The translations under genes were made by a program, and so were the position numbers. A DNA stretch of 64,000 bases from a virus (taxonomy: Duplodnaviria; Caudoviricetes). Below, in pieces: positions 1,197-60,405 of this stretch; position 1 is the stretch's first letter, and the number at the start of each line of letters is the position of its first letter. The stretch spans positions 1,690 through 65,689 of IMG/VR virus record IMGVR_UViG_3300014208_000043; one strand, 5' to 3'. Under the pieces are notes generated by a model. It had not been told where the DNA came from. It worked only from the letters and a program-made list of their open reading frames with translations, and made no database searches.

Positions 1197-2180
1197 ATGG
1201 CAAAGAAGAAAGAAGCATCACCGGCCACACCGGCCCCGGCCACAGAGTCCACAGTTGAAGCCTACGATAAAGTAAAAAGTACGCCCGAATGGAAAGGGCT
1301 TTTCTCGCTCCTTATCATCTTTTTGGCGAATTGCATTAAATGGAACTGCCTGAAAAAAGCAACTGACTTTTTGGGCAAGGTGGTAGAGGGGATGAACAAA
1401 TCTTTCGTTCCCGCCCCAGAACTTATCGATCCATTTCCAACTGAATCCGTATTTCTACCGGAGTGGCCAATCTATCCATACGACGACAAAGCGAAGCAAT
1501 ATTTTAAGCCTGGAACCACCGAAAGAGTTAAGTCTGTTACGACGATAAACAAGAATTGCGGATGGGCTTCAAACGCTCTTATGTTTTGGGCACGAAAAAT
1601 GATGTTCGAGGGCCGTGATCCGATAGAGCGCCGTGATTCCGCTGCCGACGTTGGAAAGGTTACTCATTATTTGGCGGAATGCTGGCTAAAGAAAAGCCGT
1701 CCAGAGGTAAACCGCATACCGCCCGATGTTCTAATTCAGGCAAAGCTTGGATTCGCAGAGTTTTTAAAATGGGAAAAAGAAAGTGGCGTCGTTTGGATAG
1801 CGTCAGAGTTAAGTCTTGTAGGGGAGGTTGGTAAAAACAACTATCCAGTGGGCGGAACTGCGGATGCCGTTGGAATAATAAATGAGAAATTAATACTTAT
1901 GGATTTTAAGACGGGTAGCGGGATCTATTCCGAAGCCGTAATTCAGGTTGCGGCGTATCGCCACCTTATTCAGTCCGGCCCATATTATAATCTTGACGAT
2001 GCAATGATTCTCCATTTCCCGCAGGGCAAGGCAACGCTTGTCCAGGTAAATATCGAACGGTCTGCGCTGGATTGCGGATTCGAGGTGTTCAAGCATCTCT
2101 GTGAATTGGAAAAGTTGAACGAGACCATGAAGAAAGAGATGTTACCGATTTACAGTCTTTTGGGTCAGAAGGTGTACTAA
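1197..2180 (+). CDS. PD-(D/E)XK nuclease, phage recombination exonuclease-like
   Basis: GKVTHYLAE, GGTADAV, LMDFKTG, QVAAY motifs; upstream of a RecT-like gene and ssb. Confidence 0.8.
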   Translation: MAKKKEASPATPAPATESTVEAYDKVKSTPEWKGLFSLLIIFLANCIKWNCLKKATDFLGKVVEGMNKSFVPAPELIDPFPTESVFLPEWPIYPYDDKAKQYFKPGTTERVKSVTTINKNCGWASNALMFWARKMMFEGRDPIERRDSAADVGKVTHYLAECWLKKSRPEVNRIPPDVLIQAKLGFAEFLKWEKESGVVWIASELSLVGEVGKNNYPVGGTADAVGIINEKLILMDFKTGSGIYSEAVIQVAAYRHLIQSGPYYNLDDAMILHFPQGKATLVQVNIERSALDCGFEVFKHLCELEKLNETMKKEMLPIYSLLGQKVY

Positions 2181-2686
2181 TGGGAATGCCTTTTCCTTCC
2201 ATGGACATAGAAGATATTCTCTGGCTACACAAATTCGAAAGCACACCAAAGCAAACCAGCATCTTCGACGATCCTCCCGCCAAGACCGAGCGCCAGCTTG
2301 CACAGGAGATACTGTCCGGACTCGTTGCAAAATACCCAGGCAGGACAGAGCGGTTTGCAAGACTCGCGAGATATTTATGCCACCGGAACATAGGGATCCG
2401 TGAGTACTTAATTCCCAATACGGTATCAAGCGACGACCTATGGGACTTTGGCGGTATTGCCCCAGACGTTCGCAATCCTGATGATTACGGGAATAAAGGC
2501 GGGACCGGAAACAATTTTCTCGGTGCAGTGTTTGGCGCAAAAATAGACGGGAAGAAATTTGTTTTCGTTACCACCAAGAGGAGCAGGATTAAGGGGCACC
2601 ACTCGAGACGGATATCGCTTTGGACGATTCCGGAATACGAAAGTGTTGTTGCGTCGTATAAGAGAAAAAATCCAGAATTGTTTTGA
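2180..2686 (+). CDS. Hypothetical protein
   Basis: 168 aa ORF coupled to the previous stop (TAATG). Confidence 0.6.
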   Translation: MGMPFPSMDIEDILWLHKFESTPKQTSIFDDPPAKTERQLAQEILSGLVAKYPGRTERFARLARYLCHRNIGIREYLIPNTVSSDDLWDFGGIAPDVRNPDDYGNKGGTGNNFLGAVFGAKIDGKKFVFVTTKRSRIKGHHSRRISLWTIPEYESVVASYKRKNPELF

Positions 2687-2711
2687 CTTTTTGCAATGAT
2701 TGGTTTATATT
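2683..2711 (+). promoter_or_regulatory. Sigma70-type promoter
   Basis: TTGACT, 17 nt, TATATT. Confidence 0.65.
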
Positions 2712-2721
2712 TTATGAACGA

Positions 2722-2813
2722 GACAACTTGCCAAATCCTCGTAAACATTCAGCGGTTAGAAGCCAACCCGGGCGCCACCTCCGGCAAGTTGTCGGCGTCC
2801 GGGGCTGATTTTT
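2722..2813 (+). promoter_or_regulatory. Attenuator- or pseudoknot-like structured leader
   Basis: GACAACTTGCC (2722-2732) is perfectly complementary to 2783-2793, which lies in the loop of hairpin 2767-2776/2794-2803 followed by a T-run. Confidence 0.45.
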
Positions 2814-2827
2814 ATGTTGGAGCCGAA

Positions 2828-3346
2828 ATGGAAAAGCCATGTATGGTTTGTGGAGAAGTAAAGCAAATGGAAGAGTTTCATAGAAACCCAAAACACAAAG
2901 ACGGAAGATTGAATAAATGTAAAAAGTGCAATTTATTATATATAAAAACTAGATTTGAAAAAAAGAAGTTAATTCCTGGATGGTGGAGTTCTTTTTTGGA
3001 AAAACAGAGGCCATCGTATATTAAATATAACCGAACCAAGCGATCTAAAATAAGAAGAGAAGAGTTGGAGTATGAACATAAAATTCGTTATCCCGAAAAG
3101 AAAAAGGCAGGCCAATATGCACGACATCATATTCATGTATCGGATAAAATGTTTCGCCATCACTGGTCGTATAAAAAAGAACATTTTACCGACGTGGTAA
3201 TAGTTGACTCGGAGAGTCACTACAAAATTCATCGCTATACAATTTATGATAAAGAAAACTTTCAATACAAAACATTAGATGGTGTATTATTAAACACAAA
3301 GCGAGCCGCCTTGGCTTATTATAAAACACTCAAAGACAAGGAGTAG
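2828..3346 (+). CDS. HNH-endonuclease-like protein with N-terminal Cys motif
   Basis: KPCMVCGEVK...F...DGRLNKCKKC and RHHWSY...HYKIH, a pattern typical of phage HNH-associated ORFs; an in-frame upstream start exists at 2714. Confidence 0.55.
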   Translation: MEKPCMVCGEVKQMEEFHRNPKHKDGRLNKCKKCNLLYIKTRFEKKKLIPGWWSSFLEKQRPSYIKYNRTKRSKIRREELEYEHKIRYPEKKKAGQYARHHIHVSDKMFRHHWSYKKEHFTDVVIVDSESHYKIHRYTIYDKENFQYKTLDGVLLNTKRAALAYYKTLKDKE

Positions 3347-3349
3347 AAA

Positions 3350-4570
3350 ATGTCAAACGAAGTTGTACCTTTCGAGCAGATGTCCACAATGGCAATGATT
3401 GTCGCCAAATCAAAAATGTTCCCTGGCTTTGATACGCAGGAGCAGGCCATGGCATTAATGCTGGTTTGCCAAGAAGACGGTATCGGGCCCATGCAGGCCA
3501 TGCGCCGTTATCATATTGTAAAGGGCCGTCCTGCCTGGAAGTCTCAGGCGTTGGCTGCCGAATTCATGCGCCTTGGCGGTAAACTGTTTTACCGTCAATC
3601 AGACTCTAAGGTTTGCATTATCGACGGAGAATTCAAGGGCGAGAAGTATTCCGTCGAATGGACAATTGAAGAAGCTAGGACTGCCGGTCTAACCGAAAAG
3701 GACGTTTGGAAATATCCTCGGCAAATGCTCCGGGCCAGGGCGACTGCGGAACTGGTGAACGTGCTGGCTCCCGGGATATCGGCCGGCATATACACGGTCG
3801 AGGAGGTTCAGGACATGGACGACACTCCCGACACGAAGAAGGTAAAAGTCGATGTGAACGAAGAACGCGTAACCGAAATCAACGCACTCATTGAATCCTG
3901 CACGGACCAGGAAGCAATTGACCAGATTATCAGGGTGTCGCATAAGCTAATTATCGAGTCTATGCCAGCCAGGTACAAGAAAAGGATCCAAGAAAAGTAC
4001 CTTGAAAAGGTGGCCGAGTTTGCCGGTCCCGCCCCTACCCAGCCATCACAACCCTCCGTAACCGATGCCGTAATGCAGACCATAAAGGACGATTCGGTTG
4101 CCGCCGTACCTTCAGAACCCGTTCCGGGCCCAGAAGTTCTCCAGAAGCGACTTGCCGAGGAGGACGAGCGGCAGGCAAAAATTGCCGATTCCATCAGAAG
4201 CGAGAACTTGGTGCCATTGTCTAACCACCAAGACCCCAAGGATGACGGTAAAAACCCCCCGGAAACCCCATCTACGCTTCACCGGAGGCCCCTTCCTGAC
4301 ATTAAAACGCCTGAAGCCAGTACTCCCTCAGCCGAAATTAAGAAGGAAGCAGTAAAGGCCACCTATGCGGCCGGCGAATCTTACCCGGAATGGATCCGAA
4401 AGGGCGCTTTATGCGATTATTCCATCCGACCCGGAGGATCCCCGGTGCTTATCGGCTGCATAATCGAGGATGAACCCCATGTTCTGAACGGGCAGATGGT
4501 GGTTAAGCTGTCAAAATCCATGAATCCAGTGCCAATTTCCTGTTTAACCTTGGTGAAAGGCGGTAAATAA
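3350..4570 (+). CDS. RecT/Bet-like single-strand annealing protein with low-complexity C-terminal tail
   Basis: YHIVKGRPAW, WTIEEARTAGL, VWKYPRQMLRARA, GIYTVEE; lies between the exonuclease and ssb. Confidence 0.75.
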   Translation: MSNEVVPFEQMSTMAMIVAKSKMFPGFDTQEQAMALMLVCQEDGIGPMQAMRRYHIVKGRPAWKSQALAAEFMRLGGKLFYRQSDSKVCIIDGEFKGEKYSVEWTIEEARTAGLTEKDVWKYPRQMLRARATAELVNVLAPGISAGIYTVEEVQDMDDTPDTKKVKVDVNEERVTEINALIESCTDQEAIDQIIRVSHKLIIESMPARYKKRIQEKYLEKVAEFAGPAPTQPSQPSVTDAVMQTIKDDSVAAVPSEPVPGPEVLQKRLAEEDERQAKIADSIRSENLVPLSNHQDPKDDGKNPPETPSTLHRRPLPDIKTPEASTPSAEIKKEAVKATYAAGESYPEWIRKGALCDYSIRPGGSPVLIGCIIEDEPHVLNGQMVVKLSKSMNPVPISCLTLVKGGK

Positions 4571-5028
4571 TGTCAGTTAAAGACGTGAATCGGTTCTTTG
4601 CCACCGGCAACCTGGGCCGCGACTGCGAGATTCGGTATGCCTCGAACGGTACGGCATTCACCAGCTTCTCCATTGCCTGCAACCGTGGGTACAAGGACAA
4701 GGAAGGCGTCGAGCATAAAAACGTCCAATGGTTGAACTGCGTTATCATCGGAGCCCGGGGCCCGGCCGTCCAGAAATTCCTGAAGAAGGGCGCCCGGGTG
4801 CTGATTGATGCCGAATACCGGGAGAGGCAGTGGGAGGACAAATCCGGGGCGAAGAAGAAATCTTCGGAATTCATTATCGATCAAGGCGGGGATATTCAGA
4901 TCCTAAAATTCCCGGAAAATTCCGGGCAGGACCATGGGAACGACTCAAGCAAAGAGCTGGTTGGAGAGACGTACAAGGATGGGTTAAGACAGAACCCGCC
5001 GTCCGATCAACAAGACCTCCCCTTCTGA
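4570..5028 (+). CDS. ssb: Single-stranded DNA-binding protein
   Basis: VNRFFATGNLGRDCEIRY, FSIACNR, WLNCV, LKKGARV; acidic tail ending DLPF. Confidence 0.95.
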   Translation: MSVKDVNRFFATGNLGRDCEIRYASNGTAFTSFSIACNRGYKDKEGVEHKNVQWLNCVIIGARGPAVQKFLKKGARVLIDAEYRERQWEDKSGAKKKSSEFIIDQGGDIQILKFPENSGQDHGNDSSKELVGETYKDGLRQNPPSDQQDLPF

Positions 5029-8273: not shown

Positions 8274-9109
8274 AAAAGAACATACTGATTATAGGTGGAA
8301 ATGGGACATTGGGAACTGCGCTTTCCGAAGTTCTTTATGGAAAGTGTAATCTGTTTATTGCAAGCAGGGGAGAGGAAAACCAGAAGCGTTATTTTGAAAA
8401 ATACCCTGAAGCCAAAATGATTATTGCGGACTGCGGAAGCAGGGAGTCCGTTTCTGATATGCTCAATATGGCTGCGAGAGACGGGGTGATTGACCTCGTT
8501 ATTCATTGTGCGGCAATGAAGCATGTGAATGTTTGCGAAGATAATCCAGGCGAATGTGCCAGGATAAACGTGACTGGAACGCTTTATGTTGCAGATGAGT
8601 GCGTAAGGAGGCATATCGATTCTGCAATCTTCATAAGCTCAGACAAGAGTGTCGATCCTATAAGCACTTATGGTGCAAGCAAGCTCATGGCCGAAAGGAT
8701 ATGGTTGTCTGGAAATAGCATGAGCCGGTCAAAAATGAGCGTTATCCGCTCCGGAAACATTTACGGAAGCCGCGGATCGGTGATTCCCTTTTGGGAAGAA
8801 AAGGCCAAGCGCGGAGAAGACATCCCGATTACCAGTAGGAACATGATACGGTACTGGATATCTCCGGAAGCCCTTGCCAATTTCATTGTTGCCAGGGCCG
8901 AAGAAATGAAAGGCGGGGAAATATTCATTCCGGACTGTGCGCTTCGGTCGGCTTACGAAATAGCCGTTGATATAAATAATCAGTATGGAGGGAAGTCGAA
9001 GATTATTGATGTCGGCCTGCGGCCCGGAGAGCGGCTTGATGAAAGTCTGTACGGTAAACATGAATCCGTTACAAAAACGGAATGGGGGTATCTTGTTAAA
9101 GGAAATTAA
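8270..9109 (+). CDS. UDP-GlcNAc 4,6-dehydratase-like SDR (PseB/CapD family)
   Basis: GGNGTLG, HCAAMKHV, SSDKSVDP, YGASK, RSGNIYGSRGSVIPFW, GLRPGERL. Confidence 0.9.
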   Translation: MKKNILIIGGNGTLGTALSEVLYGKCNLFIASRGEENQKRYFEKYPEAKMIIADCGSRESVSDMLNMAARDGVIDLVIHCAAMKHVNVCEDNPGECARINVTGTLYVADECVRRHIDSAIFISSDKSVDPISTYGASKLMAERIWLSGNSMSRSKMSVIRSGNIYGSRGSVIPFWEEKAKRGEDIPITSRNMIRYWISPEALANFIVARAEEMKGGEIFIPDCALRSAYEIAVDINNQYGGKSKIIDVGLRPGERLDESLYGKHESVTKTEWGYLVKGN

Positions 9110-9899
9110 TATTCTCGTTCCAAGCAAGGACCGGCCGGCGCAGCTCGATCTTCTACTCCGAAGCATGGAGAAGCATTTTTGCACAGCTCCATACACCGGG
9201 AAGCCGACAATAATTTTCAAGGCCACAAGCGGAATATTCTATGACGGATACACTCTTGTTGGGGAGCGAAACCCCGGGTGCAAGTGGATAGGGGAGCGTT
9301 TCAACCAGAACACATATAAAGACATCCTTATTGGAGCAATTGACCCGACAAAAGAATTGACGGTACTATTCGTTGACGACAACATCTTCATAAACAAATT
9401 CGATATCAACAATTCTAATTTCCAGAAATTCATGACCGATCCGAACGGAATATGCTTCTCTTTGAGGCTTAATCCTAAGATAACATACAGCTATACATGC
9501 AATAATTCTTTCCCCCCAATGGAAAAGACATCTTGGATATGGGTAGATCAGCCGTTCGAGTATGGCTATCCAATGAGTTTTGACGGTCACATTTACAGAA
9601 CAGAAGAGCTTCTTGATGCTGTTAGTCAAATTGACTTTGACGGACCCCCGATGTTCGAGTCCGAGCTTGCGAAAAGGCCCATCCCGAAAAGTGTTTTATG
9701 GTGTGATGAAATATCTTATATTACGAATGTTGCCAATAACAGGGTACAAAAAACATTCCCAAACAGGCACGGAGAAGATAACGTGATTGACCTTTGTAAT
9801 AGATACTTAATGGGAGAGCGAATAAGGCTTGAGCCGTTTGAAGGCATGAGCCCTACCTCTTGCCATATCGAAACCCCGTTTCAATGGGAGGTGGCGTGA
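9093..9899 (+). CDS. Putative glycosyltransferase (GT-A fold)
   Basis: ILVPSKDRPAQLDLLLRS, LFVDDNIF, FSLRL, YPMSFDGHIY; TTG start with SD inferred. Confidence 0.7.
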   Translation: MLKEINILVPSKDRPAQLDLLLRSMEKHFCTAPYTGKPTIIFKATSGIFYDGYTLVGERNPGCKWIGERFNQNTYKDILIGAIDPTKELTVLFVDDNIFINKFDINNSNFQKFMTDPNGICFSLRLNPKITYSYTCNNSFPPMEKTSWIWVDQPFEYGYPMSFDGHIYRTEELLDAVSQIDFDGPPMFESELAKRPIPKSVLWCDEISYITNVANNRVQKTFPNRHGEDNVIDLCNRYLMGERIRLEPFEGMSPTSCHIETPFQWEVA

Positions 9900-18887: not shown

Positions 18888-19685
18888 ATGCAGCAAACAC
18901 CAGCAGAAAAACAGAAAGCATTTCGTGGCCGAGCGTGGCCCGGAAAGCTTTGCATCTTCACTGTTGCCGGTGGCCCATATCAAAACTGGGCTCCGCTCTT
19001 TGTCGCCATGGCAAAGGAAGCGTATCCCGAGGCCGACGTAAAGGTTCTGGTCCCAGGAGAAATGACAATTCCGGAAACGCCCGACATAATCTCGGTCGGT
19101 TCTGTTTTGCCAATAGGGCACCCGCTTCTTTGCGCATCATTGCGCTTTCTAATTTGCCCTGAATGGATAACTGGATACGACTATGTTTTGATTACCGATG
19201 CCGACATGATGATTGTTCGGGAGGAGCCCGGAATCGTTTCTCAACACATGATGAGCATGGAGCTGAATGGAACCGAGTGCTATGATAACTGGCTTATGGC
19301 TCCAGGACGGATGCCTGGAATACATTTCGTAACAAGGGAATGGTGGGGTATAACTGATTCGGCAAGACGGAAAGAGACCGGAATGCTCGTAAATCCGGAT
19401 GTGGTTTTAAATATTCAGCCGGCGGACGATGAGAGAGTGCTCCATAGGATAGTTACAAATTCAGGACTTCCCCCTGCCCCGGCTACCGCTCACACATGGA
19501 CGAACCACGGAATACATTTGGGTGCACATAGGAAGTATAATGGCATGTCGCTACAATTAACTGCGCTTGAACAGTCGGCGGCAATTAAGATGGTTAAATA
19601 CGAAGATGAGATTTCCGTTGCTGCGTCAGAATTTCCATGGATCAGAAGATTTGTAAAAGATATAAAGACTGAATTTCATGTATAG
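18888..19685 (+). CDS. Putative nucleotide-diphospho-sugar transferase
   Basis: SLRFL, DYVLITDAD (DxD), GIHFV, DERVL. Confidence 0.55.
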   Translation: MQQTPAEKQKAFRGRAWPGKLCIFTVAGGPYQNWAPLFVAMAKEAYPEADVKVLVPGEMTIPETPDIISVGSVLPIGHPLLCASLRFLICPEWITGYDYVLITDADMMIVREEPGIVSQHMMSMELNGTECYDNWLMAPGRMPGIHFVTREWWGITDSARRKETGMLVNPDVVLNIQPADDERVLHRIVTNSGLPPAPATAHTWTNHGIHLGAHRKYNGMSLQLTALEQSAAIKMVKYEDEISVAASEFPWIRRFVKDIKTEFHV

Positions 19686-19724
19686 GGGCAAAGGACGAAA
19701 GGTTTTCATCCTTTGCAAGTTGCA
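19683..19724 (+). other. Leader site of cassette array 1 (attI-like or half attC)
   Basis: Short hairpin then CCTTTGCAAGTTGCAT; no AAC left core; similar to 57566-57618. Confidence 0.5.
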
Positions 19725-19787
19725 TAAAATCTGTGGTGCAAGGCAGGCCGCACGTCGTGTGCGGCAATACAAAGAAAGGAAAATGTT

Positions 19788-20795
19788 ATGAGTAGCTGGC
19801 ATTCTTATCCAAGTGTCTATGCAATGGGTCACGCCGCGATTTCCGAGTTACTTCTTGACCCCGTTCTTGTCGAAGAAAAAATTGATGGCTCACAGTTTTC
19901 TTTCGGGCGCTTCAATGGTGAATTGAAGGTTCGTTCAAAGGGAAAAGAAATGGATACGGAAGCTCCCGAAAAACTGTTCAAGCGGGCTGTCGAAGCGGTC
20001 AAGGCGCTGGACCTCAAAGACGGTCTGACGTATCGCGGAGAATGTCTGGACAAGCCACACCACAACGCCCTGGTTTACGACCGGACGCCAAAATACAACG
20101 TCATCCTTTTTGACATCAACTCCGAACACGAACAGTATTTAAGCCGGGAAGAGAAAGAAGCGGAAGCCGCCCGCGTCGGCCTTGAAATTGTCCCTATCAT
20201 GTTCCAGGGAAAGATTGAAGATTCAAAAATGGTGCTCGACTTTTTGGAGCGTCAATCCGTTCTTGGTGGTCAGAAAATAGAGGGCGTTGTCATCAAGAAC
20301 TATTCCAGGTTTGGCCGCGATAAAAAGGCGCTCATGGGAAAATATGTTTCAGAGCAGTTCAAAGAGGTTCACAAGAAAACGTGGGGCGAAAGCAATCCGG
20401 CCCAAGGCGATATTCTTATTCGGCTGATAACCATGATGAAAACGGAAGCCCGATGGAACAAGGCGGTTCTCCATATCAACGAACGGGGTGAACTTGAAAA
20501 CTCTCCGCGTGATATTGGAAAATTGATTCTTGAAGTTAAGCAAGACATTCAAAAGGAATGTCAGGATGAAATCAAGGCAGTGCTCTATAAATGGGCAATC
20601 GACCACATAACGCGGGGATGTACGGGCGGACTTCCTGAGTGGTATAAAAAGAAACTGCTTGAAACGCAATTCGGAGCGCCGTCCATGGCGCAAGGCAGCA
20701 CCACAGACTTCATGCAACAAGCGCCAGCACGAAATGGCGGGCAAGAATTGGATTTGAAGAGGCCCGCCACATCGTGCGATCCGGAAGCGCAATAA
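19788..20795 (+). CDS. ATP-dependent RNA ligase-like nucleotidyltransferase (cassette 1)
   Basis: Motif I VEEKIDG, YRGE, ILFD, EGVVIK, GKYV; last ~27 codons encoded by the attC-like site. Confidence 0.8.
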   Translation: MSSWHSYPSVYAMGHAAISELLLDPVLVEEKIDGSQFSFGRFNGELKVRSKGKEMDTEAPEKLFKRAVEAVKALDLKDGLTYRGECLDKPHHNALVYDRTPKYNVILFDINSEHEQYLSREEKEAEAARVGLEIVPIMFQGKIEDSKMVLDFLERQSVLGGQKIEGVVIKNYSRFGRDKKALMGKYVSEQFKEVHKKTWGESNPAQGDILIRLITMMKTEARWNKAVLHINERGELENSPRDIGKLILEVKQDIQKECQDEIKAVLYKWAIDHITRGCTGGLPEWYKKKLLETQFGAPSMAQGSTTDFMQQAPARNGGQELDLKRPATSCDPEAQ

Positions 20796-20836
20796 AATAT
20801 TATGGATTGCGCTCCCGGTGGCGCAACCCGTTGTGT
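20712..20836 (+). repeat. attC-like site 1
   Basis: ATGCAAC, branched stem, GTTGTGT; near copy of 57871-57989. Confidence 0.8.
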
Positions 20837-20860
20837 GTAATTTCGCGACAGGAGTATAAA

Positions 20861-21091
20861 ATGAAGATTATTCTTGCTGGAAACAAAAGGCAGTACGATG
20901 AGTATTGCCGGGGCAACCAACTTCATCCCAGCAATAAGCATTGTATGTATGCAAGAAACCGCGAATGTATTATGGGTCTTGATATTTCAGATTATGCTAT
21001 TGTTGGGACTTTTTGGGATCGCCCCGACTCATTTGAAATTATGGCGGTGGTGCTGGAAAGGCTGTCGCGAAACAACACACAACTCCCGTAA
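20861..21091 (+). CDS. Hypothetical protein (cassette 2)
   Basis: SD GGAG; MKIILAGN...; ends within the attC left core. Confidence 0.7.
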   Translation: MKIILAGNKRQYDEYCRGNQLHPSNKHCMYARNRECIMGLDISDYAIVGTFWDRPDSFEIMAVVLERLSRNNTQLP

Positions 21092-21153
21092 GGTAAAATA
21101 AAAGAAAGATTTGATTTATGGAATCTTTTACTTCACCTTACTAAACGTTGTAT
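21077..21153 (+). repeat. attC-like site 2
   Basis: ACACAAC tccc GTAAGGT...ACCTTAC taaac GTTGTAT. Confidence 0.8.
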
Positions 21154-21210
21154 AAAATGCCATTTGCGCAAATCAAATTAAACGCGGCGTAAAGCCGCTG
21201 AAAGGAAAAG

Positions 21211-21396
21211 ATGGAAGCGTTGAGAAAACTTATTATTGTGACTTTTGGCCTGGCTATTGCAATTTGTTTGAGTATTGTGAATATGATTTATGGATGGGGT
21301 GTTTCTCCGAAATCATGGGGCGTTATAATCGGTGTGGGGTTTTTCGGGCAGGTATTCGCACAAATAATAATGATGATTGGTTCACATAAAGATTAA
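21211..21396 (+). CDS. Two-TM membrane protein (cassette 3)
   Basis: Two hydrophobic helices; SD AAGGA. Confidence 0.75.
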   Translation: MEALRKLIIVTFGLAIAICLSIVNMIYGWGVSPKSWGVIIGVGFFGQVFAQIIMMIGSHKD

Positions 21397-21417
21397 AGGC
21401 AGCGCAAATGGCACTTC

Positions 21418-21524
21418 ATACAACATTTGCCAAGGTGGTTCAGCGCGTTCCCGCGCTTCAACCCAAATGCCGGAACGATTGTATTAGCAGAGTCCGGCAC
21501 TTCACCTTGGCAAGGACGTTGTGT
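21418..21524 (+). repeat. attC-like site 3
   Basis: ATACAAC...TGCCAAGGTG...CACCTTGGCA...GTTGTGT; same family as 23606, 24711 and 58429. Confidence 0.85.
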
Positions 21525-21551
21525 GTAATTTAGCGCGAAAGGCAAAATAGC

Positions 21552-21992
21552 ATGAAGACCGCCGCCGAAGACAATAAAATCAAAGCGTATACCGTGGAAG
21601 ACCCCGACGAAGGTATGGGCGTTATTGTTTTCCATTACTGCGCAAGCAGAGCGAAGGCTCTTGCGTTTTATTATGATGACCATCTTATGGATTTTGCGTT
21701 TGTCGATTTAAAGGTACGGAGAAATAAAGAGGCGGATAAATTTGCAACCAAGGAGCCAAGTGTTTTTGATTTTCAATTACACTCCAAAGAATATCGCGAA
21801 CTTGGTTGGCATTGCCAAGATAGTTCTGTTTGTGATTGGTGTGGGCTTGGAGAATATGATGACATTCCAGAATCAATTGTTTCTGAATATGAAGACGATA
21901 TGGTTTGTAAGGAGTGTCAAGATTTTGAAAAAAGCAAAGGCACGGCGGCGGAAGAAAAAGGCATCGCGCTAAAAAACACACAACTCCCGTAG
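21552..21992 (+). CDS. Hypothetical Cys-containing protein (cassette 4)
   Basis: 146 aa; CDWC...CKEC; C-terminus NTQLP read from the attC core. Confidence 0.7.
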   Translation: MKTAAEDNKIKAYTVEDPDEGMGVIVFHYCASRAKALAFYYDDHLMDFAFVDLKVRRNKEADKFATKEPSVFDFQLHSKEYRELGWHCQDSSVCDWCGLGEYDDIPESIVSEYEDDMVCKECQDFEKSKGTAAEEKGIALKNTQLP

Positions 21993-22051
21993 CGCGAAAG
22001 CCGAAAAATAATGTATAGTGATTTCGGCCATCGCGCTACTATACGTTGTGC
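21978..22051 (+). repeat. attC-like site 4
   Basis: ACACAAC tccc GTAGCGCGA...TCGCGCTAC tatac GTTGTGC; near-identical to 22676-22750. Confidence 0.85.
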
Positions 22052-22101
22052 GAAATCCGGTTGCAATAGCCAAGACGGGCGCAAGACAAAAAGGAGGAAA
22101 G

Positions 22102-22383
22102 ATGAGGAAGTGTGAGCATTTTCATCGAGGGGCATTAGCTTGCAAATTAAGTGGGATGCCGTGCCTTGGTGACGTCCCCAAAAGATGTTTCAGGGTCAAC
22201 ATCGTCGCCACCCCAAAGAAGAGCGCCCGAAAAAAGAGCAACCGGACTTCGCACAACAGCGCCACTAAGGCTCGCAAAGCCTCGTCCCAAACCTTGCGCG
22301 GTTGCCGGAATTGCGGAAGGGCCGTATGTCCAATCGGTGAGTGTATCAACTATTCTAAATGGCAACCGCGCAAGGCTTCTTAG
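22102..22383 (+). CDS. Basic Cys-rich protein (cassette 5), about half encoded inside its attC-like site
   Basis: SD AGGAGG; MRKCEHFHRG...; runs through 22251-22383. Confidence 0.6.
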   Translation: MRKCEHFHRGALACKLSGMPCLGDVPKRCFRVNIVATPKKSARKKSNRTSHNSATKARKASSQTLRGCRNCGRAVCPIGECINYSKWQPRKAS

Positions 22384-22401
22384 TGGCGCGGAACGTTGTG
22401 C
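22251..22401 (+). repeat. attC-like site 5
   Basis: GCACAAC a GCGCCACTAAG...CTTAGTGGCGC ggaac GTTGTGC. Confidence 0.8.
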
Positions 22402-22448
22402 AAAATTTGCCGAAAGACCTTTAAAGGCATCGCGCCAAGAAAGAGAAC

Positions 22449-22709
22449 ATGAGAAGATTTAGACAATTTGATTGGGTTAAACATGGACCACATATTTTAT
22501 CGTTCGGCCCAAGTTACAATAGCCTTGATGAACTTGAAGTGCATTTTTACGAGGGCCACGATCCGGTTATCTTTGGTCCGTATGGTGGAGATAGGAATCA
22601 TTGTAGGGATATAGATTATTTACGTAAAAGAAGATGGGAGCTAAAATCAGGCGCGAAATCATCGGCAAATTCAGCACATAACTCCCGTAGCGCGAAAGCC
22701 GAAAAATAA
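22449..22709 (+). CDS. Hypothetical protein (cassette 6)
   Basis: 86 aa; tail runs into the attC. Confidence 0.65.
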   Translation: MRRFRQFDWVKHGPHILSFGPSYNSLDELEVHFYEGHDPVIFGPYGGDRNHCRDIDYLRKRRWELKSGAKSSANSAHNSRSAKAEK

Positions 22710-22750
22710 TGTATAGTGATTTCGGCCATCGCGCTACTAGAACGTTGTAC
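22676..22750 (+). repeat. attC-like site 6
   Basis: Copy of site 4; left core carries a 2-nt insertion (GCACATAAC); right core GTTGTAC. Confidence 0.8.
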
Positions 22751-22796
22751 GCAAAACCGGCGAAATAGCCAAGAGCGCCGATAAGAAAGGAAAGAT

Positions 22797-23045
22797 ATGA
22801 AGCTAAGAATAATGGTTTTGGTAATGGGCTTATGCACCATTATAGTAGCAAACATGACATGTCGAAAATTAATAGGAGAAAGTTTTTCATCGTTATCTTG
22901 GGTTTCGGGATGGGTTTGTGCTATGCTGTGGTTTGCTATACTGGATGCAATAAAAGAAGAGAAAGAATCGGCGCAATCGAAATCATCGCCGGTTCAGCGT
23001 ACAACTGACGTAGCGCGAAATGGCAAAGCCCGCTGTGAAATGTAA
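22797..23045 (+). CDS. Two-TM membrane protein (cassette 7)
   Basis: Two hydrophobic segments; tail runs into the attC. Confidence 0.7.
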   Translation: MKLRIMVLVMGLCTIIVANMTCRKLIGESFSSLSWVSGWVCAMLWFAILDAIKEEKESAQSKSSPVQRTTDVARNGKARCEM

Positions 23046-23075
23046 GAGGCCACTTCGCGCTACTAAGCGTTGTAT
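22999..23075 (+). repeat. attC-like site 7
   Basis: GTACAAC tgac GTAGCGCGAA...TTCGCGCTAC taagc GTTGTAT. Confidence 0.85.
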
Positions 23076-23136
23076 AAAATGCCATTTGCGCAAATCAAAT
23101 TAAACGCGGCGTAAAGCCGCTGAAAGGCAGGAGAAA

Positions 23137-23583
23137 ATGAGTTCCTTTTCAATCTATTGGCTTATCAAGCTTGATGCTATATCTGATGTTTTGTTTAGTC
23201 TTGGGGTGCTTGGAATTATTGCATTTGTTTTATTGGGTATCGTATGGATGCAGGGGCACGACACAACGGATGATAGGGGCAGGATCATAGGAGATGAAGT
23301 GAAAAAAAGAAGAGAGTCCAGAATGCAAGTAGGCCTAAAAGGTATCCTTATAACCGCACCCGTTTCGGTTTTTCTTTTTATGCTATCCGCGATGGTTCCA
23401 TCCACAAAAGAAATGTGTGCGATAATCGTTGTTCCAAAAATTATTAATGCAGCTTCTGAAAATGAAGCTCTTAAGAATATGCCAAATGTGATTTTGGAAA
23501 CGGCAAACGCCTGGATTCGAGACTTGACCCCTAGCAATGTATCCGGCGGAGTAAAAGACATAATTAAAGAACTTAAGAAATAA
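23137..23583 (+). CDS. Membrane protein (cassette 8)
   Basis: SD AGGAG; IYWLIKLD, TM helices, PSTKEMCAI. Confidence 0.75.
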   Translation: MSSFSIYWLIKLDAISDVLFSLGVLGIIAFVLLGIVWMQGHDTTDDRGRIIGDEVKKRRESRMQVGLKGILITAPVSVFLFMLSAMVPSTKEMCAIIVVPKIINAASENEALKNMPNVILETANAWIRDLTPSNVSGGVKDIIKELKK

Positions 23584-23605
23584 AAGGCAGCGCAAATGGC
23601 ACTTC

Positions 23606-23708
23606 ATACAACATTCGCCAAGGTGGTTCCGGGCAAGCCCGTTCACCCAAATGCCGGAACGATTTTATTAGAAGATTCCGGCACTTCACCTTGGCAAGGC
23701 CGTTGTGT
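23606..23708 (+). repeat. attC-like site 8
   Basis: ATACAAC...GCCAAGGTG...CACCTTGGC...GTTGTGT. Confidence 0.85.
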
Positions 23709-23773
23709 GTAATTTTAAGACGCGCAAGACAATTAAATCAGCGCCCAAGGGCGCAAAACAAGGAGGAGGATGA

Positions 23774-24169
23774 ATGTCAGAGTTCAGAAACGAATTTGAG
23801 GGCTATTTAGGGAAGGGCGCTTTCAAGTTCCTGAAAGTCGCGTCTATCCTGGCAGCGATTTACATTTTATCGGCGCTTGTGTTTGGCTTATTCCCGTTCT
23901 CCGTGGCGTCCGGTGTTGTGAACAAGGTTGTTAATTCGACCGCAATCATTAATAATTATCAGTGGTTTTACGACCAATACAACACCATCCAGGCACAGCA
24001 AGCAAACTATGAATCTGTTCCGGTCGATGCTTACGAGCGAAACGGGATGCGGATGGTGCTCAATAACTCTATCGCTGAATACAATTCCCGGTCAAAACAA
24101 ATAACGCGGAATCTTTGGAAAGCAGATAACCTGCCCTATCAAATCAATTTAATTGGAGGTGGAAAGTGA
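23774..24169 (+). CDS. Membrane-anchored protein (cassette 9, gene 1)
   Basis: TM then NYQWFYDQYNTI...IAEYNSRS; SD GGAGG. Confidence 0.75.
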   Translation: MSEFRNEFEGYLGKGAFKFLKVASILAAIYILSALVFGLFPFSVASGVVNKVVNSTAIINNYQWFYDQYNTIQAQQANYESVPVDAYERNGMRMVLNNSIAEYNSRSKQITRNLWKADNLPYQINLIGGGK

Positions 24170-24690
24170 AAAAGAAAATTTCTGTCCTGCTCGTTTCTCT
24201 CGTGGCTGTTTTTTTGTGCATGGGGGTCGATGATTGCGACGGCAAAACCGGGCGCAACATGGCGGTTAAGAAACAGGAGGAAATGATAAAGGCCGCCGAA
24301 TCAACAATCCCAGTTCCAACCGTATCCTATTTTCAGGAAAAGCGGACAATCACGAAATGGGCAGAGCGATGGGATAAGCCGAGCGTTCCGTCTTATGTTT
24401 ATCTTATTTCATTCGGCAAAGTTCTCGGATATTATGTTGCAGACGGCAAGCCCGCCTCTACACGGTCTTATATTATGCCGGAAGATCAGATTATCGGCTA
24501 TGGCGAAAACCGTGTGGTAACCTCTGCCCCCGACATTGATGGGACTTACGGAGATAATAATCCTGGCATTCGCTTCTTTACCGCTGAAGGTGTTGCTGTT
24601 GAATGGGCCGGGGATGGCGCAAGCTATCTTTATTCAGACGCCTTGATTGATTTCGGATATGAAGTCCCAAGACTTAAAATAAGGAAATAA
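24166..24690 (+). CDS. Secreted or lipoprotein-like protein (cassette 9, gene 2)
   Basis: Signal peptide MKKKISVLLVSLVAVFLC; PDIDGTYGDN..GIRFFT..G..VEW...YLYSD; overlaps gene 1 (GTGA). Confidence 0.75.
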   Translation: MKKKISVLLVSLVAVFLCMGVDDCDGKTGRNMAVKKQEEMIKAAESTIPVPTVSYFQEKRTITKWAERWDKPSVPSYVYLISFGKVLGYYVADGKPASTRSYIMPEDQIIGYGENRVVTSAPDIDGTYGDNNPGIRFFTAEGVAVEWAGDGASYLYSDALIDFGYEVPRLKIRK

Positions 24691-24710
24691 AGAGCGCGTC
24701 TTAAAACAAC

Positions 24711-24817
24711 ACACAACATTTGCCAAGGTGGTTCAGCGCGTTCCCGCGCTTCAACCCAAATGCCGGAACGATTTGATTAGCAGATTCCGGCACTTCACCT
24801 TGGCAAGGACGTTGTGT
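24711..24817 (+). repeat. attC-like site 9 (last of array 1)
   Basis: Near-identical to site 3; ACACAAC...GTTGTGT. Confidence 0.85.
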
Positions 24818-24851
24818 GTAATTTTGTCCGCAAGTGATGAAAAGAGCTAAT

Positions 24852-25928: not shown

Positions 25929-25964
25929 CCCAGGCAGTAAGCCATTGAGCCCAGACCGGGCTAG

Positions 25965-25995
25965 CCCCTTGTGCGAAAGCATGAGGGGTTTTTTG
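25965..25995 (+). terminator. Intrinsic terminator
   Basis: CCCCTTGTGC-GAAA-GCATGAGGGG followed by a T-run. Confidence 0.85.
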
Positions 25996-57117: not shown

Positions 57118-57568
57118 ATACTACACTCCCCCCAGGTGCTACGAGAGCCTTCCTATTGACTGGGGAATGTTTTATTCAGCTCTTGAGCCGGCGGCAGGAG
57201 ATGGAAGGATTGCAAGGTTCCTTACTGGCAAGATTAGGGACATCCAGACATGCGAGATCGACATTGGAATTGATTTCTTTAAGTATGAATGGAAAGGCGA
57301 TCTAATACTCACCAATCCACCATTCTCGCTTTCTTTAGAATTTACTGAAAGGTGCGTAGAGATATCGAATACGTGTATTATGCTTCACCGTCTAGGGTTT
57401 CTCGCATCGCAGGATAGGAAAGATTTCATGAAAGCACATGAGCCGTGCTCCATATATGTTCTTTCTAATAGGCCGTCCTTCACCGGAAAAGGAACCGACA
57501 ATTCAGATTACGCGTGGATTTGTTGGGATAGAACAAACAGATTGCCAAGGGGAATATTTCATATTTAG
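57098..57568 (+). CDS. Compact N6-adenine DNA methyltransferase-like protein
   Basis: YYTPP, ALEPAAGDG (motif I), ILTNPPF (motif IV), YAWICW. Confidence 0.8.
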   Translation: MNSLKDRYYTPPRCYESLPIDWGMFYSALEPAAGDGRIARFLTGKIRDIQTCEIDIGIDFFKYEWKGDLILTNPPFSLSLEFTERCVEISNTCIMLHRLGFLASQDRKDFMKAHEPCSIYVLSNRPSFTGKGTDNSDYAWICWDRTNRLPRGIFHI

Positions 57569-57618
57569 GGGCATGGCCGGATAAAGGGCGAAAACATAAC
57601 GCCCTTTGCAAGTTGCAT
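57566..57618 (+). other. Leader site of cassette array 2 (attI-like or half attC)
   Basis: AAAGGGCG...CGCCCTTT GCAA GTTGCAT; shares motif with 19683-19724. Confidence 0.5.
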
Positions 57619-57669
57619 GCAATTTTGGCCGAAAGACATTAAGAGCGCCGCAAGGCAAGGAGAAGAAAG

Positions 57670-57951
57670 ATGTTAAACAAGCGTGATTGTGGAGCGATTG
57701 CCGCCGCAATGATTGTACGGCAATATTGTGACGAGGCAAATGGTTGTATTGGTTGCGTTTTTGATTTCGATGATAAGAGAGCAGATCTATTACCGCTATG
57801 TCCATTTGCCACAAATCCAAGACACTGGAAGTTTTTAGAAGAAGCGGCGCAAGGCATCGGCCAAAACAGCATGCAACAAGCGCCAGCACGAAATGGCGGG
57901 CAAGAAGATGAGCAGAAGCCCGCCACATCGTGCGATCCGGAAGCGCAATAA
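57670..57951 (+). CDS. Hypothetical Cys-rich protein (cassette B1)
   Basis: SD GGAG; C-terminal MQQAPARNGGQE...PATSCDPEAQ shared with the RNA ligase. Confidence 0.65.
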   Translation: MLNKRDCGAIAAAMIVRQYCDEANGCIGCVFDFDDKRADLLPLCPFATNPRHWKFLEEAAQGIGQNSMQQAPARNGGQEDEQKPATSCDPEAQ

Positions 57952-57989
57952 TATTATGGTCGCGCTCCCGGTGGCGCGGTCCGTTGTGT
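57871..57989 (+). repeat. attC-like site 10
   Basis: ATGCAAC...GTTGTGT; near copy of site 1. Confidence 0.85.
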
Positions 57990-58053
57990 GTAATTTTAAG
58001 ACGCGCAAGACAATTAAACCAGCGCCCAAGGGCGCAAAACAAGGGAGAAGAAA

Positions 58054-58422
58054 ATGGTACAAGAACTTTACGATGACTATGTTGAGGCTAAACGAGCTGT
58101 AAGAGGGGCCGAAGAATGGAACGCCCTCCCTGACGGCCCGATATATGAGTCCGGCGGTAAAATGGATGTTGCAATATCGCACTCTACAGCTCCTATGCTT
58201 ATGCGCATTGGCCAGCAAAATGCCGGTGGGAAAAATTATTGGGAATCTCCATCCGAACTTAATGCGGCAATTCTATATATCCTTGTAAGGGAGCAAGACG
58301 AGATAATAGAAAAGGCCATTTCTTATTTAAAAAGAGAAGAAGAGATGAAGCTTATTAAAGCCCAAAGATTTGTTGATGAGTTGCAAGATAAAATAAACTC
58401 AGTTAAAGGCGGCGCGTCTTAA
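58054..58422 (+). CDS. Hypothetical protein (cassette B2)
   Basis: 122 aa; leader near-identical to the cassette 9 leader. Confidence 0.7.
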   Translation: MVQELYDDYVEAKRAVRGAEEWNALPDGPIYESGGKMDVAISHSTAPMLMRIGQQNAGGKNYWESPSELNAAILYILVREQDEIIEKAISYLKREEEMKLIKAQRFVDELQDKINSVKGGAS

Positions 58423-58428
58423 AACAAC

Positions 58429-58535
58429 ACACAACATTTGCCAAGGTGGTTCGGGCCGTTCCCGGCCCTCAACCCAAATGCGCGAAACATTAGATTTTTT
58501 GAATCGCGCACTTCACCTTGGCAAGGCCGTTGTAT
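58429..58535 (+). repeat. attC-like site 11
   Basis: ACACAAC atttgccaaggtg...caccttggcaaggcc GTTGTAT. Confidence 0.85.
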
Positions 58536-58574
58536 GCAAAACCGCCACAAGACAAAAACAAAAAGGAGAAAAAG

Positions 58575-58751
58575 ATGGAACAGTGGAAATGCTCAAAGTT
58601 TGACAAGGCGAACAAGTGGAACGTGTCTGGCACTACGACAATTCATCCTACATTCGCCGAAGCCAACCACAGGGCGACGGAAATCCTTAATGACCTTGGG
58701 GATTTAGGTCGGAATATTTATTCTGTTATGCTGGAGCCTATCATTGTTTAA
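58575..58751 (+). CDS. Hypothetical protein, 58 aa (cassette B3)
   Basis: SD AAGGAG; MEQWKCSKF... Confidence 0.6.
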   Translation: MEQWKCSKFDKANKWNVSGTTTIHPTFAEANHRATEILNDLGDLGRNIYSVMLEPIIV

Positions 58752-58766
58752 GAGTGGCGGTTCAGC

Positions 58767-58820
58767 ATACAACTAGCAAAGCACGGCGTTTCACTGCCGT
58801 GCATTTGCCGGACGTTGTGT
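58767..58820 (+). repeat. attC-like site 12 (54 nt)
   Basis: ATACAAC ta GCAAA-GCACGGC...GCCGTGC-A-TTTGC cggac GTTGTGT; one extrahelical base. Confidence 0.85.
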
Positions 58821-58875
58821 GTAATGCTGTCCGAGATAGCCGAAGAGTGTGCGCAATACAAACGAGGAGAATGGC

Positions 58876-59085
58876 ATGAAAATTCTAATGTTTGAAAATG
58901 TTGACTTTTACGAATTTAGATTTGAAGGGAAAATAGCTAGAATGTATGAAAGGCAATATGTCCAAGACAGGGCAAAACAGATGAACGATAATAAGCCAAA
59001 TGCTTTTTTAGATGCCTTTAGGAAAGAAATGGGGTTCAGGAATATAGGAGCGCGCACGGAATCGGGCAGCACAACACACAACTAG
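58876..59085 (+). CDS. Hypothetical protein (cassette B4)
   Basis: SD GAGGAG; MKILMFENVDF...; stop just inside the attC. Confidence 0.6.
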   Translation: MKILMFENVDFYEFRFEGKIARMYERQYVQDRAKQMNDNKPNAFLDAFRKEMGFRNIGARTESGSTTHN

Positions 59086-59129
59086 CAAAGCACGTAGTTT
59101 CCACTACGTGCATTTGCCGGACGTTCTAT
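59076..59129 (+). repeat. attC-like site 13 (54 nt)
   Basis: Same family as site 12 with a compensated inner stem (GCACGTAG/CTACGTGC); right core GTTCTAT. Confidence 0.85.
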
Positions 59130-59185
59130 GCAATACAACCGCCAAGGCAAAGAAAAGAGCGCGCCCTAAGAAAAGACAAAGCAAA

Positions 59186-59944
59186 ATGAAACCATATTAC
59201 GAACACGCCGGAATCACAATCTATCACGGAGACTGCCGGGAAATTTTAATTCAGCTCGCCCCGGATTCCGTGATAACAGACCCGGTTTGGCCGAATGCAA
59301 GGGTTCCGCTTTTCGGACAAAAAGACCCGTTCGGAATGATGCGGGAAATGGTCGCAGTCCTTGCCGATTCTTGCAAGCGCCTTGCCGTCCATCTTGGCTG
59401 TGATAGCGACCCGCGTTTTTTAAGTTCTGTCATGCCCCTGGTTTTCCCGTTCTTCCGTGTGGTCTGGTTTGAATATGCTCGGCCACATTATAAAGGGCGT
59501 TTGATGTACGGCTCTGATGTCGCTTACCTTTTCGGCATCCCGCCCAAATCCCGGAAAGGCGCACATGTTATTCCGGGTAGGCTCATTGATGCGGATTCAA
59601 GCGGCCGCCAATCAGACCACCCGTGTCCTCGTAAAATAGGTTTTGCAAAATGGCTCGTTAATTGGTGGAGCGATTTGAATGATTTGGTTTGCGACCCATT
59701 CATGGGGAGCGGAACCACATTGGTTGCGGCCAAACAATTAAACCGGCGAGCAATCGGAATTGAATACGAGGAAAAATACTGCGAGGAAGCGGCCCGGCGT
59801 TTAAGCCAGGAAGAATTATTCGGAACGGGCGCGCAAGACCAAAGGCAGGCGGTTGTACAGCATAGAACAAGCGCAAGGGCAAAAGGCACGGAAGAATTGA
59901 ATTTGGAGCCGTGCCCTTCGCCCGCCCCGGACGCGCTTAAATAA
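59186..59944 (+). CDS. Beta-class N4/N6 DNA methyltransferase (cassette B5)
   Basis: IYHGDCRE, VITDPVW (DPPY-like), HPCPR, VCDPFMGSGTTLVAAKQLNRRAIGIE; tail encoded by the attC. Confidence 0.9.
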   Translation: MKPYYEHAGITIYHGDCREILIQLAPDSVITDPVWPNARVPLFGQKDPFGMMREMVAVLADSCKRLAVHLGCDSDPRFLSSVMPLVFPFFRVVWFEYARPHYKGRLMYGSDVAYLFGIPPKSRKGAHVIPGRLIDADSSGRQSDHPCPRKIGFAKWLVNWWSDLNDLVCDPFMGSGTTLVAAKQLNRRAIGIEYEEKYCEEAARRLSQEELFGTGAQDQRQAVVQHRTSARAKGTEELNLEPCPSPAPDALK

Positions 59945-59980
59945 ATATGGAATGCGCGTCCGGTTGCGCATCCGTTGTCC
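59862..59980 (+). repeat. attC-like site 14 (last of array 2)
   Basis: ATAGAAC aa GCGCAA...TTGCGC atcc GTTGTCC; branched like sites 1 and 10. Confidence 0.8.
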
Positions 59981-60012
59981 GACATTGAAACGTCGCACAA
60001 CAAGAAAGTAAA

Positions 60013-60405
60013 ATGACAAACCTTCAAAAGAGGATATCTAAATATAAGCGCGACAACCCTAGAAAATCGGTTGTGCAAAAATATAAAAACACCAAGTGTA
60101 GGTGTTCACATAATCATATTCATGCCAGTAGGAAAGAGGCCCGCGACTGCGAAAAGGTGGAGATGCTTAAAAAGAGCGGGGAATTCAAAGAGGCAAAAAC
60201 ACAAGTAAGCTTTCCGCTTTACGCATATTCAGCAGGGATAAAGGTTCAGGTTTGTACTCATATTGTTGACAAGCTTGTTACACGGAAAGATGGAACGCAA
60301 GAGGTGATCGAAACGAAAGGTTTTTGCACCCCAGAGTGGGCCCTGAAAAGGAAACTATTTGAGGCAAACTACCCAGACATAATTTATTCAGTTTGGCGTT
60401 GCTAA
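60013..60405 (+). CDS. DUF1064-like restriction-fold endonuclease/resolvase
   Basis: KYKNTK, HASRKEA, HIVDKLV...VIETKGF. Confidence 0.7.
   Translation: MTNLQKRISKYKRDNPRKSVVQKYKNTKCRCSHNHIHASRKEARDCEKVEMLKKSGEFKEAKTQVSFPLYAYSAGIKVQVCTHIVDKLVTRKDGTQEVIETKGFCTPEWALKRKLFEANYPDIIYSVWRC

Follow-up and report, generated by a model that had tools for sequence, protein, structure and literature searches.

Cassette arrays with long complementary arms in an integrase-less phage: a probable extended-stem variant of integron-type cassettes

Introduction

Integron biology rests on a short recombination site that is defined by its structure, and both the origin of the cassettes and the systems that move them outside bacteria are open questions. 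In a classical cassette the 5′ end (TTRRRY) is complementary to the cassette's own RYYYAA, the attC site has a length of about 57–141 nt and its extrahelical bases are used by the integrase IntI. The canonical attC site is composed of an R box, a spacer, extrahelical bases and a variable terminal structure, and the stem above the spacer contains two extrahelical bases, typically G and T (PMC7439510). It was shown that cassette excision is governed by the stability of the attC site (PMC5371416). Clusters of attC sites without an integrase, termed CALINs, are present in virulent phages, and the attC cluster of the Tetrasphaera phage TJE1 was validated experimentally (Qi et al., 2023; PMC9892861).

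The phage arrays analyzed here raise the question of what long inverted repeats enclosing each cassette are for, i.e., whether they form the base of an attC-like site, serve another recombinase or act in a different process. The base of the site is about twice as long as the classical one, carries a private address and a fixed mismatch, and occurs in lytic-type phages whose cargo includes ordinary phage genes, among them those for an RNA ligase and a DNA methyltransferase. A preliminary description, made from the sequence alone, had proposed a divergent attC class or the substrate of a different recombinase.

The phage genome and its two cassette arrays

The window, i.e., the whole 64-kb stretch of DNA that was analyzed, covers nearly all of its source record, a complete virus of 65,689 bp with direct terminal repeats. 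Every gene in the window lies on the + strand, as do all features given below. Next to a glycosyltransferase island and structural genes, the phage encodes a recombination module of an exonuclease, a RecT-like annealase and an SSB (1197–5028) as well as an endonuclease VII-like protein (2696–3346). Small ORFs, separated by structured elements of 54–151 nt, are collected in array A (19719–24831) and array B (57612–60001). A gene for a Holliday-junction resolvase (phrog_190; 60013–60405) is located immediately downstream of the terminal unit of array B.

Cassette A1 is bounded by a left arm at 19719–19739, which shows the GTT core, AA at positions 10–11 and a private part of 9 nt, and by a right arm at 20698–20718, which ends with AAC within the read-through tail of an RNA-ligase ORF (19788–20795). 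It is followed by an attC-like inner element of type alpha (20719–20829), a branched hairpin, and a near-identical element follows B1. Cassette A2 (20830–21083) has arms of 22 nt (20830–20851 and 21062–21083), A3 (21147–21424) of 23 nt, A4 (21518–21984) of 21 nt and A5 (22045–22257) of 20 nt with a lone A·C mismatch at position 11. The arms of A6 (22395–22682) lie at 22395–22413 and 22662–22682, A7 (22744–23005) has 20-nt arms, and the 23-nt arms of A8 (23069–23612) are those of A3. A9 (23702–24717) contains two ORFs and shares its 24-nt arms with B2; it is followed by the last inner element of array A (24718–24831), of type gamma, with an unpartnered left end (GTT at 24811) closing the array. 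In array B, the arms measure 21 nt in B1 (57612–57877), 24 nt in B2 (57983–58435), 20 nt in B3 (58529–58773), which precedes a short inner element of 40 nt (type delta), and 21 nt in B4 (58814–59082), here with one additional mismatch. B5 (59123–59868) encodes the DNA methyltransferase between 21-nt arms (59123–59143 and 59848–59868). Array B ends with a 28-nt unit (59974–60001), in which a left and a right end of 10 nt each, the latter finishing with AAC, enclose 8 nt. This unit looks like an empty cassette body.

Both arrays are preceded by a common leader (19683–19724 and 57566–57618), which in each case follows the stop codon of an unrelated gene and is composed of TAGGGGCA, a short hairpin and CTTTGCAA, directly followed by GTTGCAT, the core of the first cassette of either array. 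The junction TGCAA-G-TTGCA forms a small inverted repeat resembling the simple site of attI, and to judge from its sequence the shared leader could be an attI-like site.

A single strong terminator was found for array A (25963–25990). The inter-cassette elements contain no terminator-like sites on the + strand, and the only promoter-like match at the cassettes is a weak one at a left arm. An Rfam search matched no family, a Pfam search gave no match for ten ORFs taken from array A and the module downstream of it, and no close phage relatives were detected in IMG/VR by means of the genes flanking both arrays and a 730-aa protein downstream of array A. Exact attC-type patterns were searched in viral contigs and found no match either.

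Complementary arms, private helix and fixed mismatch

The entire window was scanned for GTT...AAC pairs, 30–3000 nt apart, with 21-nt arms complementary at at least 16 positions. This resulted in 15 pairs, every one of them within the two arrays, compared to 1–2 pairs in five mononucleotide shuffles. All 14 complete cassettes (A1–A9 and B1–B5) start with GTT, finish with AAC and possess complementary arms of 20–24 nt, confirming the earlier claim of terminal inverted repeats of about 20 nt that extend beyond the 7-nt core; the three arm pairs originally quoted (A1, A2 and B5) were recovered at their places in the arrays. The ungapped match amounts to 18–19 of 21 positions in 13 cassettes, and A6 requires a 2-nt indel next to the core.

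Within each arm, positions 1–9 comprise the GTT core and a few further paired bases. Positions 10–11 of the left arm are AA in 19 of 19 cassettes, i.e., 13 from this phage and six from a second phage (G001, described below), and the corresponding positions of the reverse-complemented right arm are [T/A]G in 18 of 19. On the top strand the resulting fixed spot is an A·C mismatch that may be accompanied by an A·A, and on the bottom strand it is T·G; in a second variant A·C occurs at positions 8 and 11. The mismatch bubble that had been noticed at a similar offset in the first inspection is real and more regular than claimed. From position 12 to the end at 20–24, the distal 9–13 nt are private to the cassette, with 11 distinct sequences among 13 cassettes. 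These private parts match their cognate partner at 9.7 of 10 positions on average vs. 3.2 of 10 for non-cognate combinations (non-cognate maximum 7). Covariation over so many independent sequence types shows that arm pairing is either selected or templated.

Just inside both arms of most cassettes a purine-rich motif (AAGGCA, AAGACA or AAAGA) is present in the same sense (e.g., 19740–19745 and 20692–20697), so that the stem ends in an A·A mismatch. An interpretation of this motif as target duplication was rejected: it is missing from G001 and looks like shared chassis ancestry.

Inner elements, cores and module borders

The inner element starts directly after ...AAC and stops directly before GTT..., and the 14 sites have a length of 54–151 nt from R″ to R′. 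All 14 are predicted to fold into two stems around an unpaired central spacer, with a branched tip in the longer types. The unpaired spacers measure 1–4 nt after AAC and 3–5 nt before GTT, i.e., the spacer asymmetry reported initially is seen. Sites of the gamma type (four copies) form a three-way junction supported by five compensatory pairs, and their L stem is predicted to be a perfect 10-bp helix without bulges. The predicted folds of the beta and delta types show isolated unpaired bases or small internal loops, arranged differently from the classical pattern. Every site (14/14) begins with an RYRYAAC-like sequence such as ATGCAAC or ACACAAC and finishes with GTTGYRY, the third position departing from the RYYYAAC/GTTRRRY consensus. 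The preliminary description had regarded the GTTGYRY core as a departure from classical sites, which turned out to be wrong: GTTRYRY cores (GTTATGC, GTTATAT, GTTATAG) are common in the classical array of Vibrio anguillarum, and the core sequence itself is therefore not unusual.

The arms that flank one inner hairpin derive from different cassettes and their private parts are mismatched, the true partner being located across the ORF; this places the crossover between the two flanking arms. The module borders lie within a few nucleotides of GTT and AAC. In the pairs A3/A8 and A9/B2 the downstream inner type is identical and the upstream inner types differ, showing that, as in integrons, each inner element is part of the cassette to its left. 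The inner elements of A4 and A6 (21985–22044 and 22683–22743) match from AAC to the spacer before GTT and have different R″ cores and arms, which points to an exchange not only at GTT but also at the AAC border. A crossover at G↓TT alone cannot yield this pattern; an exchange at AA↓C, i.e., top-strand recombination, or short-homology recombination by the phage RecT system may contribute to it. Finally, A1 and B1 have trailer, core and inner element in common, and their private arm parts differ at both ends in concert, a difference that bears on how cassettes are built.

The cassettes A3 and A8 (21147–21424 and 23069–23612) as well as A9 and B2 (23702–24717 and 57983–58435) share within each pair identical arms, a leader of 35–57 nt with a small hairpin and a trailer of about 30 nt. 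The ORFs are unrelated within both pairs, i.e., the non-coding chassis was reused. Many cassette ORFs have no stop codon before the right arm and read into the inner hairpin (19788–20795, 20861–21091, 21552–21992 and 22449–22709). The proteins of A2 and A4 both end with NTQLP, encoded by the shared core, and the RNA ligase of A1 is about 40 residues longer than its relatives.

Folding of cassette circles and of single-stranded array DNA

As the preliminary description had proposed, the circular junctions were reconstituted in silico and folded. Rejoining of the cassette ends resulted in one continuous long hairpin in 14 of 14 cases, and the circle junction was 10–19 kcal/mol more stable than the corresponding array site (14 cassettes), with the bottom strand usually being the more stable one. 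The energies are predicted from thermodynamics and take neither SSB nor kinetics into account. When linear single strands reaching from the preceding site through the cassette to the following site were folded, 16–21 of the 21 arm bases paired with their cognate partner in all 12 cassettes and on either strand. The arms could thus also act within the array by looping each cassette and bringing its borders together. Using DNA parameters, the bottom strand forms the more stable arm duplex in 16 of 19 cassettes, since the invariant A·C reads T·G on this strand; the bias is modest in size.

Recurrence of the design and origin of the cargo genes

The arm design was looked for in 200 loci found via relatives of the RNA ligase (80 from viruses, 80 from metagenomes and 40 from genomes) and was clearly present in one of them, the viral contig G001 (116.8 kb, 34% G+C), which stems from an unrelated phage. 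G001 contains a terminal array (1–1640) and a solo cassette 9 kb in (9030–9166), together six cassettes with arms of 19–22 nt. The spot of AA against [T/A]G and the asymmetry of the spacers are the same as in the phage arrays described above. The G001 array has a G+C content of 43% vs. 34% for the contig, so that by its composition it is foreign to this genome. The search for a tyrosine recombinase on this partial contig gave no match either. Two inner elements of G001 encode a similar C-terminal peptide of about 40 residues (QQLKA...KLRxLSA) by diverged DNA. An apparent cassette of 103 nt (1193–1295) was rejected, as it is actually the L stem of a long site. Moreover, one metagenome contig likely carries a single cassette of the same style.

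The closest relatives of the RNA ligase show 85% and 76% identity, and some of the tails look site-encoded. In eight close relatives inspected, the ligase gene lies outside any cassette. For array B, a blastn search against isolated phages gave the methyltransferase of two Microcystis phages as the sole match, encoded there in a tight operon without cassettes. RNA ligase and methyltransferase are hence ordinary, tightly packed genes in the other phages inspected, suggesting that ordinary phage genes were placed into a reusable non-coding chassis here.

Search for the recombinase and the host

A six-frame search of the complete phage revealed neither an integron integrase (TIGR02249) nor another tyrosine recombinase (PF00589), and no serine recombinase, Y1 HUH or rve DDE transposase. 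As a control, the recombinase models found matches in 10 to 14 of 14 genomes, with TIGR02249 and PF00589 matching in 14 of 14. This shows that the enzyme, if it belongs to the tested families, must act in trans, supplied by the host or by another element. The motif CGTTGYRYRNAAW was not enriched in 401 sampled Patescibacteria genomes, a result that does not exclude this phylum.

A long hairpin with a private base as the proposed site

With a probability of roughly 70%, we consider each arm pair to be the split basal stem of an attC-like hairpin that belongs to the cassette itself, an interpretation that draws on the anatomy and covariation of the arms, the computed energies, the recurrence in G001 and the absence from the classical arrays examined. 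The cassette circle would carry one long hairpin with the private helix of 9–13 bp at its base and the fixed non-Watson-Crick spot next to it, and above this spot a 9-bp helix ending in the GTT/AAC core (R box), the asymmetric unpaired spacer and a second, often branched stem. During insertion, a crossover at G↓TT or right beside it would cut the circle open at the top of the basal stem, so that one stem half comes to lie at the 5′ end and the other near the 3′ end of the inserted cassette. This would be classical integron logic with a stem of about twice the length and a cassette-specific address. The long stem might make the site of a free cassette far more stable than the hybrid sites of the array, thereby favoring capture and retention over loss. 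In single-stranded array DNA it might pair both ends of one cassette and join the two crossover points. The fixed mismatch may serve as a recognition feature that is read on the bottom strand, and the enzyme could be a tyrosine recombinase that is supplied in trans by the host or by a co-infecting element. Points that speak against the reading as a basal stem opened at G↓TT are the absence of a recombinase of the tested families from the phage, the pattern seen for A4 and A6, the predicted gamma L stem without extrahelical bases, and the purely thermodynamic nature of the energies.

If the long stem is functional, cassettes would be kept in the array and free ones be favored for capture, cassettes with the same core would be stopped from cross-pairing with each other, and a testable signature would be at hand for the responsible recombinase and for a wider family of arrays. 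Going one step further, the arrays might represent a distinct, undescribed branch of integron-like capture systems in uncultured phages and possibly also in ultra-small bacteria and archaea, in which a long hairpin with private basal helix and fixed mismatch is used by a trans-acting recombinase other than a classical integron integrase and ordinary phage genes are loaded into a reusable chassis. We regard this wider proposal as tentative and would at present rather bet against it.

Alternative explanations for the paired arms

It was considered that the arms act in RNA. The array might be transcribed as a unit and each cistron be closed by a panhandle of about 21 bp with an internal loop, which RNase III would cut to release stable monocistronic mRNAs, the resemblance to attC being secondary. 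About 22 bp with an internal loop is a usual size for an RNase III substrate, and the cassettes lack promoters and terminators of their own, array A having the single strong terminator at 25963–25990. Moreover, all 12 folds of the sense strand show the cognate arms paired over the ORF. However, with RNA parameters 18 of 19 cassettes have their weaker arm duplex on the sense strand, and this strand carries A·C where selection on RNA would favor G·U. RNase III would not need the GUU/AAC core, yet neither this core nor the AA/CA spot varies between two phages that differ strongly in base composition, Rfam gave no match, and the swapped partners together with the module borders at GTT and AAC indicate exchange of DNA. 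As the primary role of the arms the RNA panhandle is therefore unlikely; as a second function, with processing by RNase III, it is possible.

The arrays could also be the product of homologous shuffling by the exonuclease, RecT-like annealase and SSB of the phage, for which leaders, trailers and inner hairpins would serve as homology arms as proposed for the promoter-terminator cassettes (PeSLs) of T4-type phages (PMC2839356; PMC4122927), and the complementarity would be a by-product of chassis ancestry. The phage does encode these three proteins along with the endonuclease VII-like protein and the Holliday-junction resolvase, identical leaders and trailers surround unrelated ORFs in A3/A8 and A9/B2, A4 and A6 have a common inner element and different arms, and RNA ligase and methyltransferase are non-cassette genes in other phages. 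Nevertheless, shuffling by homology would neither need nor maintain 11 private complementary arm pairs or a fixed mismatch, and the promoter-terminator composite typical for PeSLs is missing. We consider homologous shuffling improbable as the explanation of the arms; it may well act alongside the basal-stem mechanism without replacing it.

Finally, small MITE-like transposons mobilized by a DDE or HUH enzyme and stacked side by side would also result in units bounded by inverted repeats of about 21 bp with a conserved outer end (GTTG...CAAC), but this is very improbable and fails on every defining feature, as no Y1 HUH, rve or other tested recombinase is encoded by the phage, no target-site duplication is seen at the unit borders, over half of each repeat is private, fitting recognition of structure and not a sequence-specific transposase, and the units stand in one orientation and in strict tandem, with copies in the arrays only and covarying structured hairpins between them.

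Comparison with known systems

The basal-stem reading brings the arrays close to integrons. Like integron and CALIN arrays they contain small, mostly orphan and promoterless ORFs in one orientation, and as in integrons each ORF precedes an imperfect hairpin of 54–151 nt with ...AAC and GTT... at its borders. In 14 of 14 cases the cassette begins with a sequence complementary to the left end of its own site, which is the footprint of a crossover at G↓TT. An unpaired spacer separates two stems, the tip is variable and sometimes branched, and the bottom strand is slightly favored. With published phage CALINs the arrays share a DNA methyltransferase among the cargo (PMC9892861).

In contrast to these similarities, the extent of pairing differs. 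For 14 cassettes of a chromosomal-integron fragment of Vibrio anguillarum (on a phage record), pairing of the cognate ends extends over 8–11 nt, and for the integron of Shewanella M16-3 and its separate attC cluster over 8–12 nt, whereas the phage arrays pair over 20–24 nt. A match of 17 of 21 arm positions was reached in neither the Vibrio nor the Shewanella array, and the TJE1 genome contains no arm pair with at least 17 of 21. Classical pairing of 8–12 nt implies that a few cassette-specific bases beyond the 7-nt core are normal, and the first helix of the phage arms corresponds to these. The mismatch and the second, private helix are absent from the Vibrio and Shewanella arrays. Unlike in integrons, the distal half of the phage arm is private, a fixed non-canonical AA/CA spot is found 10–11 nt from the end, the spacers measure 1–4 and 3–5 nt, and the predicted folds of at least one site type show no clear extrahelical bases. 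An integron is defined by an integrase gene (IntI) adjacent to the array together with attI; no integrase is encoded anywhere in the complete phage, and by this criterion the arrays are of the CALIN type. The possibility that this design is routine in known chromosomal integrons, which was raised at the outset, came out negative in the two classical arrays and in TJE1, a small sample. The term divergent attC class is a fair description, as the arms exceed the classical 8–12 nt and the design recurs in an unrelated phage. The gene content of TJE1 resembles that of the phage, with a methylase, an SSB, an ERF protein and an exonuclease, and a sugar-modification island encoding a nucleotidyltransferase, an epimerase, a methyltransferase and a glycosyltransferase. 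A literature search that did not cover all journals gave no description of long private basal stems.

A further system of interest is attP(+) of CTX-phi. This site exists only as a folded single strand, with a stem that has an unpaired or mismatched center, and the tyrosine recombinase XerCD of the host acts on it in trans by a single strand exchange. It differs in that each phage genome has a single such site, which serves integration into the chromosome and is not part of a cassette array, and in that its arms are dif-like and sequence-specific and contain no private helix.

Moreover, the PeSLs of T4-type phages, like the structured elements here, are repeated intergenic motifs on either side of small accessory genes; they occur in hyperplastic regions of lytic phages and were proposed to mediate modular shuffling via homologous recombination (PMC2839356; PMC4122927). 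PeSLs are direct repeats that combine an early sigma-70 promoter and a terminator stem-loop (PMC2839356; PMC4122927), while the phage cassettes are without promoters and terminators of their own and their key feature is the inverted complementarity across the gene. As a summary, the arrays are best described as a real structural variant of integron-type cassettes, with an extended stem, carried by a phage that lacks an integrase.
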